This document shows, piece after piece, positions 1-3,655 of a stretch of 3,655 bases of DNA. Source of the DNA: a virus. Its lineage: Duplodnaviria > Heunggongvirae > Uroviricota > Caudoviricetes. Under the pieces are notes generated by a model, which saw nothing but the letters and a program-made list of their open reading frames with translations, was not told the origin of the DNA and made no database searches. How positions within the stretch are numbered: position 1 is the first letter of the stretch; each line of letters begins with the position of its first letter. A program made the translations under genes and the position numbers. Location of the stretch: positions 1 to 3,655 of IMG/VR virus record IMGVR_UViG_2690316115_000028, one strand, 5' to 3'.

Positions 1-1074
1 TCATTTGTCGATTTCAATTTTGTCCCATTCCCGTCCACGGCTGTCTCTATACCGCGCCGCCATTGAATCTGATTTATGCCCGAGAAGACGTTGAGCAAAT
101 TTATCGCCAATCTGGTTCCGGTATAGCCTCGCTGACAGGCTACGCAGTTCATGGAATGTTGGCGGGTTTCCATCAAATGAGAGTCCAGATGCATTTCTCG
201 CCTTTGTAAAATACTTTGATACTGTTTTCGGGGAAAGAGGATCGTAATGCTTTGATGCGATTATAGTTTCACTGCTGCTGGCCTCCCTGCATTTCTGTAG
301 TGTATCAGCCAATGAGATATTGAGCGCGTCAATCGTTAGCGTTAGCGGAATGGCGAGTTTAGCCCCTGTTTTACTCTGTTCAATGTGAAGATGGTTGTCG
401 TTTATGTCTGACCATTTCATTCTGCACAAATCGCCGACTCTCTGCCCTGTAACGACGGCCAAATCCATCGCCAGCCTTAGCCAGATAGGGAGAGGTTCGG
501 CTGCATGGTAAATCTCGACATACTCATTAGCTGTCAGCCTTGAGCGCCTTACTTCTGACTTTGCTGTACGGGTTGCTGTTACCGGATTCGTTGCCACATG
601 CCCCTCGGCTATTGCTTCACGAAAAACGTCAACAAGGGTTGACCTGATTAATTTTGCGGAAGCTGCTTTACCTTCTGCTACGTAGGTGTTTAGCATTGCT
701 GCCACTTCTTTCGTTGATATGTCAGTGAGCGGTTTGTCCGGCAATTTTCTTCGGATTGCCCTGATTTTGCTGGCGTAGTCGAGTAGAGTTTTCGGCCTGA
801 TCCCCCTTTCGGTGAGGATTGTTTCATATCGGTCAAGCCACACATGAAGAGTGATTGCGTCACCGCCTTTAATTCTGTCTATTAGTGATTTGCGTCCGCT
901 GTCTGAGAGTAACTCAATATTGGCCTGTATTGCTTCAGTGATTGCTATCCTCCTGTCTCGGCCTAAACCAAACTCTTTACCCGTCCTTGGGTCCCTGTAG
1001 CAGTAATATCCATTGTTTCTTATATAAAGGTTAGGGGGTAAATCCCGGCGCTCATGACTTCGCCTTCTTCCCAT
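1..1074 (-). CDS. int: Tyrosine site-specific integrase, lambda Int family (357 aa)
   Basis: Full-length ORF. The N-terminal ~55 aa (MGRRRSHERRDLPPNLYIRNNGYYCYRDPRTGKEFGLGRDRRIAITEAIQANIEL) and the C-terminal catalytic region (HELRSLSARLY...LLGHKSD...YRD.RGREWDKIEI) match lambda Int as I recall it; the central region is diverged. ATG at 1074..1072 preceded by GAGGA about 6 nt upstream. Start overlaps the 3' end of xis by 23 nt, as in lambda. Confidence 0.95.
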   Translation of the reverse strand: MGRRRSHERRDLPPNLYIRNNGYYCYRDPRTGKEFGLGRDRRIAITEAIQANIELLSDSGRKSLIDRIKGGDAITLHVWLDRYETILTERGIRPKTLLDYASKIRAIRRKLPDKPLTDISTKEVAAMLNTYVAEGKAASAKLIRSTLVDVFREAIAEGHVATNPVTATRTAKSEVRRSRLTANEYVEIYHAAEPLPIWLRLAMDLAVVTGQRVGDLCRMKWSDINDNHLHIEQSKTGAKLAIPLTLTIDALNISLADTLQKCREASSSETIIASKHYDPLSPKTVSKYFTKARNASGLSFDGNPPTFHELRSLSARLYRNQIGDKFAQRLLGHKSDSMAARYRDSRGREWDKIEIDK

Positions 1075-1270
1075 TTCTGATCCTCTTCAAAAGGCTACCT
1101 GTTACTGGTCGATTTAAGTCAACCTTTACCGCTGATTCGTGGAACAGATACTCTCTTCCATCCTTAACCGGAGGAGGGAATATCCTGCATTCGCGCACCC
1201 ATCGACGAACTGTTTCAAGGCTTCTTGGGCGTCGCTGGCGTGCGTTCCACTCCTGAAGTGTCAAGTACAT
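1052..1270 (-). CDS. xis: Excisionase Xis (72 aa)
   Basis: The internal Met of the 85-aa track ORF gives MYLTLQEWNARQRRPRSLETVRRWVRECRIFPPPVKDGREYLFHESAVKVDLNRPVTG.LLKRIRNGKKAKS, near-identical to lambda Xis as recalled. ATG at 1270..1268; TGA stop at 1054..1052 inside int. Confidence 0.9.
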   Translation of the reverse strand: MYLTLQEWNARQRRPRSLETVRRWVRECRIFPPPVKDGREYLFHESAVKVDLNRPVTGSLLKRIRNGKKAKS

Positions 1271-1282
1271 CGCAAAGTCTCC

Positions 1283-1296
1283 GCAATTACACGCAA
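1283..1296 (-). promoter_or_regulatory. cII-type activator box TTGC-N6-TTGC at the expected position of the pI (int) promoter
   Basis: Minus strand reads TTGCGTGTAATTGC, 13-27 nt upstream of the xis ATG. In lambda, pI is cII-activated through TTGC-N6-TTGC flanking the -35 and initiates inside xis. Function not verified. Confidence 0.5.
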
Positions 1297-1318
1297 GAAA
1301 AAGCCGCATTGATGCGGC
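1295..1318 (-). terminator. Intrinsic terminator T1 (minus strand)
   Basis: Perfect 6-bp GC-rich stem GCCGCA/UGCGGC (1303..1308 pairs 1313..1318) with 4-nt loop, followed on the minus-strand RNA by UUUUUCUU. No U-tract on the plus strand. Lies between the 114-aa gene and xis. Confidence 0.55.
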
Positions 1319-1374
1319 GATGGTAGGTCTGGATATCTTGAGAAATGAACAGGCCTCATCGAGTGTGAGGCGGG

Positions 1375-1719
1375 TTAGTCCTTGCGTAGCTCGCTGATTC
1401 TTCTGTAAGTCTCTGGTGCTTTGTTCCCGTACGTCTTCATTTCAGACTTCAACAGAGCAACGAGTGAATCCCATTCGTTGAGGATTCCTTTGAATGCCGG
1501 AACGCGCTTTGCAACCTTGTCGAATGAATCTCTGATTTCTGGAATCTGCTCAACAAGTGCAACGCATCGTCGGAAATCGGCTGCGTCATGTGGAGCACCG
1601 AAGCTATGACCATAGATATTCTTTTTCAGTCCACATGCGATTGAGGCAAGAGTTGCGCTACTGATGCCTACATCGCCAGTCGATTGCCATTTCAAAACCT
1701 TCATAGCCAAATCTGACAT
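1375..1719 (-). CDS. Hypothetical protein, 114 aa, function unknown (candidate accessory/moron gene)
   Basis: Clean ORF co-oriented with the operon. ATG at 1719..1717 with GGAG (1730..1727) 7 nt upstream; TAA stop at 1377..1375. Protein-like composition (MSDLAMKVLKWQSTGDVGISSATLASIACGLKKNIYGHSFGAPHDAADFRRC...). The antisense ORF 1421..1609 is low-complexity. I recognise no family. Confidence 0.75.
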   Translation of the reverse strand: MSDLAMKVLKWQSTGDVGISSATLASIACGLKKNIYGHSFGAPHDAADFRRCVALVEQIPEIRDSFDKVAKRVPAFKGILNEWDSLVALLKSEMKTYGNKAPETYRRISELRKD

Positions 1720-1730
1720 TTCTTGTCTCC

Positions 1731-1757
1731 AATAAAAAAACCGCCATCAGGCGGCTT
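1731..1757 (-). terminator. Intrinsic terminator T2 (minus strand)
   Basis: Stem CCGCC/GGCGG (1741..1745 pairs 1750..1754), extendable by A-U and G-U pairs, loop UGAU, followed on the minus-strand RNA by a U7 run (complement of 1734..1740). Sits between the 55-codon gene and the 114-aa gene. Confidence 0.7.
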
Positions 1758-1914
1758 GGTGTTCTTTCAGTTCTTCAATTCGAATATTGGTTACGTCTGC
1801 ATGTGCTATCTGCGCCCACAGCACCCAGTGGTCATAGCAGTCGCTGATGTTCTCGGCTTCGATAACTCTGTTGAATGGTTCTCCATTCCATTCACCTGTG
1901 ACTCGGAAGTGCAT
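1747..1914 (-). CDS. Small hypothetical protein, 55 aa (resembles the unnamed 55-codon ORF next to xis in lambda)
   Basis: Not in the ORF track (below its length cutoff). My own translation of the minus strand: MHFRVTGEWNGEPFNRVIEAENISDCYDHWVLWAQIAHADVTNIRIEELKEHQAA. ATG at 1914..1912 with GGAG (1925..1922) upstream; TGA stop at 1749..1747 inside the T2 loop. Length matches the lambda 55-codon ORF; identity recalled, not verified. Confidence 0.6.
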   Translation of the reverse strand: MHFRVTGEWNGEPFNRVIEAENISDCYDHWVLWAQIAHADVTNIRIEELKEHQAA

Positions 1915-1922
1915 TTATCATC

Positions 1923-1950
1923 TCCATAAAACAAAACCCGCCGTAGCGAG
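1923..1950 (-). terminator. Candidate weak intrinsic terminator T3 (minus strand)
   Basis: Minus-strand RNA CUCGC-UACG-GCGGG (5-bp stem with one G-U; plus 1937..1950) followed by UUUUGUUUUAU, which runs into the RBS of the 55-codon gene. Short stem, so tentative. Confidence 0.35.
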
Positions 1951-1952
1951 TT

Positions 1953-1982
1953 CAGATAAAAGAAATCCCCGCGAGTGCGAGG
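1953..1982 (-). terminator. Candidate intrinsic terminator T4 (minus strand)
   Basis: Minus-strand RNA CCUCGC-ACUC-GCGGGG (6-bp stem with one G-U; plus 1967..1982) followed by AUUUCUUUUAU. About 50 nt downstream of the stop of the 80-aa gene. Confidence 0.4.
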
Positions 1983-2032
1983 ATTGTTATTCATTGCCGA
2001 TATTCACCTTTATCGCGAACACCTTTACCGGT

Positions 2033-2275
2033 TTATCTCCTTTGCATGGCGCGTAATTTTTTCAGATGGTTCTCCTGCTCTGTTTCAGCCAGAATTTGTC
2101 GGTATTCCTGGTGATCGATCCGTTCAAACAGTTCATTAAAATTGTTTATTTTTACCGACTGTGTTCGCCCATCCATTCTTCTGTACAACACAGTGTTGTT
2201 TATGCAGCGAAGAATTTTTATCGGGTAGCCGGCGCTATCGGTGTATATCTGACCACGTTGAATCAGAGCGAACAT
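2033..2275 (-). CDS. Small hypothetical protein, about 80 aa (98 aa if the TTG at 2329 is used)
   Basis: Track ORF 2033..2329 begins with TTG, and its flanking GGAG abuts that codon with no spacer. The first ATG (2275..2273) has GGGGA 7 nt upstream, giving MFALIQRGQIYTDSAGYPIKILRCINNTVLYRRMDGRTQSVKINNFNELFERIDHQEYRQILAETEQENHLKKLRAMQRR. TAA stop at 2035..2033. Start choice unresolved. Not recognised as lambda Ea8.5 (no Cys/His cluster). Confidence 0.55.
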   Translation of the reverse strand: MFALIQRGQIYTDSAGYPIKILRCINNTVLYRRMDGRTQSVKINNFNELFERIDHQEYRQILAETEQENHLKKLRAMQRR

Positions 2276-2349
2276 TCCTTTATCCCCAGCGGAAAAGCGA
2301 ATACAGAATAAATGCCACCGCGATTGCAACTCCTACAGCGGTGAATGCT

Positions 2350-3087
2350 TCAGGCCAATTCATCATTCACTCCCTGCGGCGGTTCTGGTAGCAGCATCCA
2401 GTACAAGGCGTTCCCTAACCACGATAAAGTGCCGTCGCTCAACTCCACGTATTCCTCTTGTACCTGTCCTGCCATATACTCACCGTGCTTTGAATAAATT
2501 AAAATCCAATCATCTTGAGCGGGCATTCGCTCACTACAGCTTATCCAACCATCCGGCAACTTGTAAGCCGTCGTTACAGGTTCGGCACCATGAAGCATGG
2601 CGGCGATGTTGTTTCTCTTGAGAAAGTTAATACTTTTCAAGGTATCTTCCTCAAGCGTCGAACCGGTGTAGCCATTGGAGCAAGTTTCAGCACGTTTATG
2701 ATGGTACCTTAATGCAGCAATGCATTTTCTTATCCCGTCACGGTATATTTCCTCTTCCTCCTCAAGCTCAGCACTGATTTCGACATCCATATCGTGAAGC
2801 ATTGCTCGCTGCACCTCAGTCAGGGGTACCGGCGCTGGCGGGACGGCGTAGACTTCAATAATCCCATTATCAATAGGCCATTCTCCATCCTTGAGGTAGT
2901 CACTTGTGCCGTCAACTTTCTGTTCTGCAATGTGGAATGCACCTATTGGTTTTGCTTCCAGCGATGCCAGAGCAATTCGTGCCAGTTCTTCCGCTTCTTC
3001 TGCTGGCAGTACAACGTTGCTACCAGGTCCGTATGTTTCGCGCCACTGCTTGATTGTCAGTAGTCGCTCTTTGGTAATAGTGGTCAT
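2350..3087 (-). CDS. Hypothetical phage protein, 245 aa, with a C-terminal region resembling DUF551
   Basis: Track ORF 2350..3249 is 299 aa, but the likely start is the internal ATG at 3087..3085 (MTTITKERLL...), preceded by the strong SD AAAGGAGAG (about 3100..3092) and lying 1 nt after the upstream TGA. The C-terminal segment (DGWISCSERMPAQDDWILIY...WMLLPEPP) resembles the DUF551 family found in enterobacterial prophages, from memory only. Acidic linker ELEEEEE mid-protein. Confidence 0.8.
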   Translation of the reverse strand: MTTITKERLLTIKQWRETYGPGSNVVLPAEEAEELARIALASLEAKPIGAFHIAEQKVDGTSDYLKDGEWPIDNGIIEVYAVPPAPVPLTEVQRAMLHDMDVEISAELEEEEEIYRDGIRKCIAALRYHHKRAETCSNGYTGSTLEEDTLKSINFLKRNNIAAMLHGAEPVTTAYKLPDGWISCSERMPAQDDWILIYSKHGEYMAGQVQEEYVELSDGTLSWLGNALYWMLLPEPPQGVNDELA

Positions 3088-3088
3088 A

Positions 3089-3655
3089 TCACTCTCCTTT
3101 GATGCAAATGCCAGCGGCGCGCTCGGCTTCACTTTGTTCCCAAAACCACTTGTGAAGCGCCATAAGCTTTTCGTCAATCGGTGCATATTTGCGATTAAAG
3201 TAGGCCTGAGCATCTTTCTCAGATTCGTCCGGTAATTCGCCAGGGCCAAACAGTGTGTTATAAATCCATGCTAGTCCGCTCTTAGCGTCGCCAGTTGCCT
3301 GCCATTCGATAATGGCAGCCTGCATGACCAGAATGTTTTTCCCCATTAATAGGTCCAGTTCTTTGAACCGGTTGCGGATGTATGCATTCTCGCTTTGTAA
3401 TTTTGCGTTGCGCTTTTCTGAGGCTTCAAGTAACGCCTGCTTATCGCGTAGCGCTTCTTCCAGTTCAGCAACATGGCATTCACTATCAATAAGGTTGTTC
3501 TCTGCTGCTTCAAGCTCAACACGCAGCTTCCCAACCGTAAGCGCAATCTCCTCGTTCTCCTGGTCGCGGCGTTTGATGTATTGCTGGTTTCTTTCCTGTT
3601 CATCCAGCAGTGCCAGCACGGTAGCCGGGTTAGCCTCTGCTATGAATTCAGCGTT
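3089..3655 (-). CDS. Ead/Ea22-like family protein, 5'-partial (continues beyond the window)
   Basis: Reading frame is open from the window edge (...NAEFIAEANPATV LALLDEQERNQQY...). The track's start at 3619 is a GTG inside the frame. Central heptad-like coiled-coil segment (LRVELEAAENNLIDSECHVAELEEALRDKQALLEASEKRNAKLQSENAYIRNRF) then a C-terminal globular region. Architecture and position (upstream of ea8.5/xis/int) match Ea22-like proteins. TGA stop at 3091..3089. Confidence 0.75.
   Translation of the reverse strand, partial: NAEFIAEANPATVLALLDEQERNQQYIKRRDQENEEIALTVGKLRVELEAAENNLIDSECHVAELEEALRDKQALLEASEKRNAKLQSENAYIRNRFKELDLLMGKNILVMQAAIIEWQATGDAKSGLAWIYNTLFGPGELPDESEKDAQAYFNRKYAPIDEKLMALHKWFWEQSEAERAAGICIKGE

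Follow-up and report, generated by a model that had tools for sequence, protein, structure and literature searches.

A DUF551-domain protein encoded immediately downstream of an Ea22-like gene in a lambdoid Escherichia coli prophage, and its ties to Ea22

Introduction

In lambdoid and Shiga-toxin phages, the exo-xis/ea region affects the choice between lysis and lysogeny, and through it the release of toxin. We analyzed a stretch of 3,655 nucleotides (nt) from this region of a tailed phage (Caudoviricetes), comprising positions 1 to 3,655 of IMG/VR record IMGVR_UViG_2690316115_000028 and referred to below as the window. In it, the gene for a 245-amino acid (aa) protein bearing a DUF551 domain, hereafter the target, starts 1 nt after the stop codon of an Ea22-like gene. 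A preliminary description of this locus had proposed that the two genes are tightly co-expressed, that their products may form a functional pair, and that the target consists of two domains separated by an acidic linker. The question raised by this arrangement is whether the adjacency reflects a working relationship between the DUF551 protein and Ea22, or the close packing of genes that act independently of each other. As detailed below, the earlier observation was confirmed, while its interpretation was partly supported. Natural fusions, split forms and gene order support a functional tie between DUF551 and Ea22, and suggest that the two probably work together. The best overall explanation, in which our confidence is about even, is that the target represents the stand-alone form of an exchangeable C-terminal head that acts with an Ea22 scaffold. 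The analysis adds evidence for the Ea22 linkage, the finding that the junction is generic, and a cassette-like variable core; its novelty is otherwise modest.

Results and discussion

The target is an established member of the DUF551 family

The features relevant to the gene pair and to the DUF551 domain are as follows:
2350 to 3087, minus strand: target gene, encoding a 245-aa acidic DUF551-domain protein (stop codon at 2352-2350)
3089 to 3655, minus strand: Ea22-like gene, 3' part only (aa 69-256 and the TGA codon; the rest lies outside the window), encoding the coiled-coil core, the C-terminal domain, which is variable, and the tail AAGICIKGE, which is conserved
2374 to 2550, minus strand: DUF551 domain of the target (aa 180-238), a five-stranded small β-barrel

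The open reading frame (ORF) running from 3087 to 2350 translates to 245 aa. Since homologs open with MTTITKERL behind many unrelated upstream genes, and since ATG 3087 is the sole candidate start with a Shine-Dalgarno sequence, we conclude that it is the real start of the gene. A longer, TTG-started ORF of 299 aa (2350-3249) was rejected on the same grounds. The target is not a chance ORF, because at least 28 contigs encode the identical protein and 1328 representatives (50% clustering) matched it at E<=0.001 in a full-library search.

The suggestion that the C-terminal segment of the target resembles DUF551 was borne out by both sequence and structure comparisons. The Pfam DUF551 profile (PF04448) matched aa 180-238 across its entire length (positions 1-68 of 68) with a score of 37.6 bits (E 4.1e-9), compared to a gathering cutoff of 22 bits. 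The AlphaFold2 model of the protein alone, which had been called for by the preliminary description, was confident (pLDDT >90) for the DUF551 domain but for no other part of the target. The modeled domain resembles small β-barrels of the SH3/Tudor-like class, and the best Foldseek matches in BFVD were named DUF551 (E 9.4e-5 to 1e-3, probability 1.0). The target therefore shares with other members of PF04448 both an above-threshold C-terminal domain and the predicted fold of their models. It likewise carries the two motifs that flank the domain in this family, W-I-S-x-x-E/D-R-L/M-P and W-M-P-L-P-x-P, in the forms W-I-S-C-S-E-R-M-P and W-M-x-L-P-E-P-P.

The protein was already catalogued. It is 100% identical to P0001, a 'DUF551 domain-containing protein [Escherichia coli]', and the whole target falls into phrog_60 of PHROGs (E 3.6e-62). 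Homologs in P22-like phages that share its N-terminus and nearly the same DUF551 core carry the label 'EaA protein'; that of Salmonella phage 64795_sal4, for example, begins MTTITKERI. Nothing sets the target apart within the DUF551/EaA family, and its combination of modules, described below, is one of many. Searches of NCBIfam profiles, of PADLOC profiles and of the PDB by sequence and by profile returned nothing for the 245-aa target, and no functional study was found in the literature on 'EaA protein' and eaA/P22/ead. Taken together, these findings make the target an ordinary protein that had been catalogued before, within a known family to which no function has been assigned.

The target is strongly acidic, with an isoelectric point (pI) of 4.59 and a net charge of -21; the pI of the DUF551 domain is 4.05, and that of 99% of the relatives examined is below 6. 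This is in keeping with published Ea22 variants, whose C-terminal domains are reported to be acidic (PMC10834534).

The chromosomal sequence most similar to window 2522-3100, that of E. coli F2_81 (NZ_CP043542.1; locus L001, 2826-3566), is 100% identical and annotated as two pseudogene fragments, and this copy of the gene is therefore disrupted. The full-length gene with this exact combination of modules was not present at high identity in any complete E. coli genome of our collection.

DUF551 domains occur fused to Ea22, split from it and in synteny with it

Support for the proposed pairing of the target with the Ea22-like protein came in the form of natural fusions, natural splits and conserved gene order. 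Protein vb_24B_6c of phage Phi24B combines Ead_Ea22 (aa 2-155) and DUF551 (aa 231-296) in a single 301-aa polypeptide. Its first 157 residues, which cover both the N-terminal domain and the coiled coil of Ea22, share 96% identity with Ea22 of the window prophage. H0156 of VT2-Sakai is a shorter version of the same fusion. These proteins, together with that of 933W, belong to variant V2 of Shiga-toxin phages, which has been described as an Ea22 carrying DUF551 (PMC10834534). Variant V2 resembles the window prophage in that a DUF551 domain of the same kind is encoded after a TraR-like gene, with no change in genome position. It differs in that DUF551 forms the fused C-terminal domain of Ea22, whereas Ea22 of the window has a different C-terminal domain and the DUF551 domain resides in a separate 245-aa protein with its own upstream modules and a different barrel core. 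Such fusions are recurrent: Ea22 and DUF551 were both present in 12 of the 150 best family representatives, each from a separate 50%-identity cluster, and fusions accounted for 13 of 76 related IMG/VR loci.

The split form is represented by phages HK022 and PhiR12_5, in which Ea22 is followed, after a 1-nt gap, by an ORF with a related N-terminal module and then, through an ATGA overlap, by a separate DUF551 ORF. The order of this cassette and its 1-nt junction, which follows the tail AGIRIKGE, are as in the window, and its N-terminal module and DUF551 flanks are homologous to those of the target. In contrast to the two overlapping ORFs of HK022 and PhiR12_5, the window encodes both parts in one polypeptide.

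We measured synteny in loci of close relatives that were fetched using family-specific patterns. Of 72 informative DUF551 loci, 68 had Ea22 either fused to DUF551 or encoded on the same strand no more than 2.5 kb upstream. Viewed from the other side, DUF551 was among the next three genes for 50 of 74 Ea22 genes, and immediately downstream in 14. The linkage extends to the P1-like phage RCS47. The association of DUF551 with Ea22-like genes anticipated in the preliminary description is thus conserved.

The one experimental foothold comes from Phi24B. When its ea22 gene, and with it the fusion that bears DUF551, was deleted, latency fell from 135 to 85 min, burst size rose from 25 to 110, and lysogeny depended less steeply on multiplicity of infection (PMC7093339). 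The tetrameric assembly and pro-lysogenic phenotype of Ea22 come from experiments on the lambda, P27 and Phi24B proteins only (PMC7093339, PMC10834534).

Taken together, the fusions, splits and synteny argue for a functional tie between DUF551 and Ea22, which probably work together. DUF551 proteins emerge from this comparison as a detachable counterpart of the Ea22 C-terminal domain, present in fused, single-gene or split form with the order kept constant, and Ea22 plus DUF551 becomes a defined unit for experiments in place of isolated hypothetical genes.

The stop-1 nt-start junction is a general property of Ea22 genes

The junction between the two genes contains 2 features:
3094 to 3099, minus strand: Shine-Dalgarno sequence AAGGAG, 6 nt ahead of ATG 3087 and wholly within the Ea22-like K-G-E codons
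3085 to 3115, minus strand: conserved 31-nt junction at the Ea22 3' end, GCTGGCATTTGCATCAAAGGAGAGTGATATG, made up of tail codons, Shine-Dalgarno sequence, stop codon, 1 nt and start codon

The minus strand reads ...ATC AAA GGA GAG TGA T ATG ACC ACT... across the junction, which places the Ea22-like TGA at 3091-3089, a single spacer base at 3088 and the target ATG at 3087-3085. The 1-nt distance between stop and start, and the location of the Shine-Dalgarno sequence (3099-3094) in the last codons of the upstream gene, both stated in the preliminary description, can be read directly from the DNA. AAGGAG was also present at the junctions of the relatives compared, and the consensus of the 31-nt junction, from GCTGGC through ATG, is GCTGGCATTCGCATCAAAGGAGAGTGA[T/G]ATG.

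This junction is not particular to the target. We compared 52 non-identical Ea22 3' ends and found that a 34-nt stretch, made up of the last 27 nt, the stop codon and 4 further nt, displayed a median pairwise identity of 88%, while the 150 nt preceding the junction were unrelated (28%). The 1-nt gap follows the stop codon in 60 of 77 Ea22 genes, regardless of which gene lies downstream, and a tripeptide of the '+GE' type (K/R-G-E) ends 47 of the 52 distinct 3' ends; the tail in the window, AAGICIKGE, has this form. The same KGE-TGA-T-ATG join also occurs between the split modules of DUF551 proteins. Lambda ea22 retains the AGIRIKGE tail and the TGA (...GGCATTCGCATCAAAGGAGAGTGA), but without a following ATG (locus L094, 2348-2375). 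In loci L095-L173, both the Ea22 C-terminal domains ahead of this junction and the genes after it are unrelated. The stop-1 nt-start junction is consequently a property of Ea22 genes generally, rather than of the Ea22-DUF551 pair.

The proposal of tight co-expression stood in part. Co-transcription is supported, as neither promoter-like nor terminator-like sites were found between the Ea22-like gene and the target. The arrangement TGA-T-ATG with an internal Shine-Dalgarno sequence likewise has the stop/start geometry of a translationally coupled pair. The junction is nevertheless not specific to this pair, and an RNA hairpin covering the ribosome-binding site was rejected, since the 121-nt RNA spanning the junction has an unexceptional minimum free energy (z-score of -0.78), with 39 of 200 shuffled sequences folding at least as well. 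Because no RNA structure masks the start, we infer translational coupling of the 2 genes from geometry only.

All Ea22 proteins were reported to end in the '+GE' tripeptide, the significance of which was given as unknown (PMC7093339). In the simplest reading of the junctions compared here, the '+GE' tail is probably constrained at the nucleotide level, as it would contain the ribosome-binding site of the next gene and mark a boundary of mosaic recombination. Our findings thus offer a simple nucleotide-level explanation for this tail.

The target is composed of three independently recombining modules

A block map of 120 relatives resolved three independently recombining modules, namely N (aa 1-88), M (aa ~89-170) and DUF551 (aa ~176-241), in place of the two domains proposed earlier. 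In the target, they are arranged as follows, with the third module comprising the linker plus DUF551 (aa 171-245):
2824 to 3087, minus strand: module N (aa 1-88), two predicted helices and a β-hairpin, with a IIEVYAVPPAPVP end
2578 to 2823, minus strand: module M (aa 89-170), predicted to be helical and holding the ELEEEEE run

Longer relatives carry unrelated inserts of up to ~180 aa between the modules. Separate PHROG families, all of unknown function, cover aa 1-96, 117-158 and 177-244 of the target. Module N forms an independent BLAST block (query 1-87) in many relatives and is matched by phrog_3323 and phrog_660. Module M is swapped for unrelated inserts in relatives, and phrog_9599 covers aa 117-158. 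The acidic ELEEEEE run, described as a linker in the preliminary description, does exist, but occupies aa 107-113 in the interior of module M rather than a border between modules. In contrast to the DUF551 barrel, neither module was modeled confidently by AlphaFold2, with pLDDT mostly <50 for module N and low confidence for module M. We also considered whether module N was a diverged Ea22 domain, and rejected this idea because comparison of the DUF551 protein family with Ea22 returned a profile-profile probability of 0.1.

The core of the DUF551 barrel is hypervariable between conserved flanks

Conservation within the DUF551 domain is confined to its two edges, which enclose the following segment:
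2401 to 2520, minus strand: hypervariable barrel core (aa 190-229), between the flanks PDGWISCSERMP and WMLLPEPP (family: (T)HWMPLPEPP)

Residues W181, I182, S183, C184, S185 and P189 were invariant among 50 relatives, and the W230-P237 block was at least 90% conserved. Between them, ~200 relatives contained at least 16 core types, none of which was more than ~60% similar to another. The same contrast was apparent in the DNA of fetched loci representing 8 core types. The 36-nt flank on the 5' side of the core (window 2521-2556) was 97% identical, and the 24-nt flank on the 3' side (window 2377-2400) was 92% identical, synonymous sites included in both cases, while identity of the cores themselves was 28%, which is the level expected by chance. 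A megablast breakpoint at window 2522 coincided with the exact start of the core. An origin of the variable core through a diversity-generating retroelement (DGR) or shufflon was rejected, as the window contains no relevant direct or inverted repeats and the variation lies between genomes. In view of the conserved flanks, the chance-level cores, the breakpoint and the absence of repeats for in-situ diversification, DUF551 cores appear to have been exchanged between genomes by homologous recombination at their flanks.

A model for the target, weighed against alternatives

As stated above, we favor the view, at roughly even confidence, that the target is a stand-alone head for an Ea22 scaffold. 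According to this model, the target would be a non-essential early accessory gene of the leftward (pL) operon. It would be transcribed together with the Ea22-like gene, and the embedded ribosome-binding site and 1-nt gap would cause both proteins to be made together. The target would correspond to a separate version of a module that, in other phages, forms the C-terminal domain of this very Ea22 scaffold, and may join the Ea22 coiled-coil protein, a reported tetramer, as an exchangeable acidic head that binds protein. The variable core of the barrel would determine which host or competing-phage protein is bound. Acting in this manner, the target might contribute to the role of Ea22; in lambda and Phi24B, Ea22 slows lytic growth and favors lysogeny.

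The main alternative, which we regard as somewhat unlikely, is that the target is an independent accessory (moron-type) protein without an Ea22 partnership, for instance one with a counter-defense role or one that inhibits a DNA-binding protein of the host. In that case, adjacency and coupling would reflect only tight packing and a conserved recombination boundary at the Ea22 end. Several of our findings favor this alternative and weigh against a partnership with Ea22. The coupling junction is generic, being identical whatever gene follows Ea22; the Ea22 and DUF551 genes are often separated by unrelated cassettes (63, 171 and 251 aa); and Ea22 is the immediate upstream neighbor in only 17 of 76 loci, six of which represent the same prophage as the window. 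Conversely, 24 of 74 Ea22 genes, including that of lambda, lack a nearby DUF551 gene. DUF551 occurs without Ea22 in CPS-53, where YfdS comes after YfdR, and has also been joined to other partners, namely a dATP/dGTP pyrophosphohydrolase domain and, in phiRSL1, a protein named Lar (restriction alleviation). The target is moreover acidic, expressed early and hypervariable, like many phage inhibitors. A partnership is further weakened by the fact that gene order in mosaic phages is inherited and the sampled loci are close relatives, so that synteny overstates independence; by two-hybrid surveys that found no partner for lambda Ea22 (reported in PMC10834534); and by the lack of a confident fold for modules N and M, with contact between the Ea22 and DUF551 proteins being something that we infer. 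An independent accessory protein is nevertheless difficult to reconcile with repeated fusion to Ea22 in 12 separate 50%-identity clusters, with an order that is kept across fused, single-gene and split forms, and with retention of the linkage in P1-like phages. The absence of a match for the target among the anti-phage defense proteins of PADLOC likewise counts against it.

A more ambitious version of the scaffold-and-head model, which we consider quite unlikely in its full form, is that Ea22 and DUF551 constitute a modular recognition system. In such a system, a conserved tetrameric scaffold would be combined with interchangeable small-barrel heads, either fused to it or co-translated with it. 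The cores of these heads would be swapped between co-resident prophages by homologous recombination at the 36-nt 5' flank and the 31-nt junction, thereby retargeting a host or rival-phage protein in an arms race. If correct, its possible uses would include neutralization of a defense sensor and control of superinfection, and the Ea22 '+GE' tail would be a by-product of the embedded ribosome-binding site and the recombination boundary.

We also considered whether DUF551 acts as a targeting domain linked to nucleic acids or to the nucleotide pool, with its barrel either binding DNA or RNA, of which Sm, KOW and Tudor barrels are capable, or recruiting nucleotide-metabolizing enzymes. This possibility appears very doubtful, as the strong acidity of the target and its relatives argues against nucleic-acid binding.

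Finally, it is extremely improbable that the target is a decaying, functionless mosaic remnant, a product of modules that happened to join in frame within a cryptic prophage. In favor of this reading, no complete E. coli genome in the collection has the full-length gene at high identity, and the sequence closest to window 2522-3100, that of CP043542, is annotated in pseudogene fragments. Against it, the ORF is uninterrupted and preceded by a good ribosome-binding site, at least 28 contigs encode the identical protein, which occurs in prophages at two different integration sites, and each of the three modules is conserved in hundreds of relatives.

Genomic context and additional observations

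All genes of the window lie on the minus strand and are transcribed in the order Ea22-like 3' part, target, DUF4222, ORF55 and ORF114 homologs, xis and int. Those downstream of the target are:
2033 to 2275, minus strand: DUF4222 gene, 80 aa (Pfam DUF4222, E 1.3e-15), 74 nt downstream of the target
1914 to 1747, minus strand: homolog of phage 434 ORF55
1719 to 1375, minus strand: homolog of phage 434 ORF114
1309 to 1052, minus strand: xis
1074 to 1, minus strand: HK022-type int

The Ea22-like ORF matched Pfam Ead_Ea22 (PF13935) at E 1.1e-12 for the fragment in the window; for the full 256-aa Ea22 gene of locus L004, the match covered aa 2-143, the N-terminal domain and coiled coil, at E 1.4e-35. 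In loci encoding the identical DUF551 protein, the full Ea22 is 256 aa and the DUF551 protein 245 aa. The DUF4222 gene, also called as a gene in L004, is the next member of the operon and lies outside the Ea22-DUF551 pair. Six loci with full context encode the identical target protein. In these, the order is N, cIII, kil, gam, bet, exo, DUF1317, DUF1382, sometimes a TraR-like gene, Ea22, DUF551 and DUF4222, followed by two small ORFs (orf55 and orf114), xis, int and the attachment site. This context places the window at the distal end of the pL early operon, in a lambdoid E. coli prophage whose integrase is of the HK022 type.

E. coli K-12 YfdS, of CPS-53, is the usual K-12 example of DUF551 and is encoded a few genes upstream of the excisionase gene torI. 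It is 22% identical to the DUF551 domain of the target, scores 22.2 bits against the cutoff of 22, and at 120 aa lacks modules N and M. Its start (locus L174, 9512-9874) overlaps the end of yfdR by 10 nt. Since YfdS is only a marginal, distant member of the DUF551 family, we rejected transfer of its H2O2-sensitivity phenotype (cited in PMC4776307) to the target.

The cassettes that intervene between Ea22 and DUF551 are of three recurrent kinds, namely a 63-aa ORF, a 171-aa ORF (motif VHGWPKGNCCWGNP) and a 251-aa ORF starting MIHYHGGPITP, none of which matched Pfam or PADLOC. Examples are found in related loci L100 (3773-4288), L096 (3773-3964) and L112 (3545-4300). The RefSeq record of HK106 lists a 'queuine tRNA-ribosyltransferase' in the corresponding region, a possible counterpart of the 251-aa ORF.

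The variable C-terminal domain of the Ea22-like protein (window 3128-3427, minus strand; aa 145-243) matched a short, 127-position PADLOC model named 'DpdH' (PDLC02890; E ~1e-37), a name belonging to the Dpd defense system, while Pfam returned nothing for this segment and the lambda and Phi24B Ea22 proteins failed to match the same PADLOC model.

The first terminator-like sites follow DUF4222, at 1985-1934. They belong to a minus-strand cluster of hairpins (1934-1985, 1738-1757 and 1303-1318; 9 found versus 3.7 expected) located downstream of DUF4222 and of the orf55-like and orf114-like genes; these hairpins are presumably read through under N antitermination. An Rfam scan of the window returned only a sub-threshold isrK-like match (18 bits compared to a gathering score of 50; E 0.85), which overlaps the terminator-like hairpin at 1734-1794.

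Lastly, the identical Ea22-DUF551-int segment was observed at two chromosomal sites, either beside torS or beside a pectinesterase gene (L004 and L009 versus L005-L008), in prophages that differ in their immunity regions. It therefore represents a left-arm segment that is common to otherwise different prophages.

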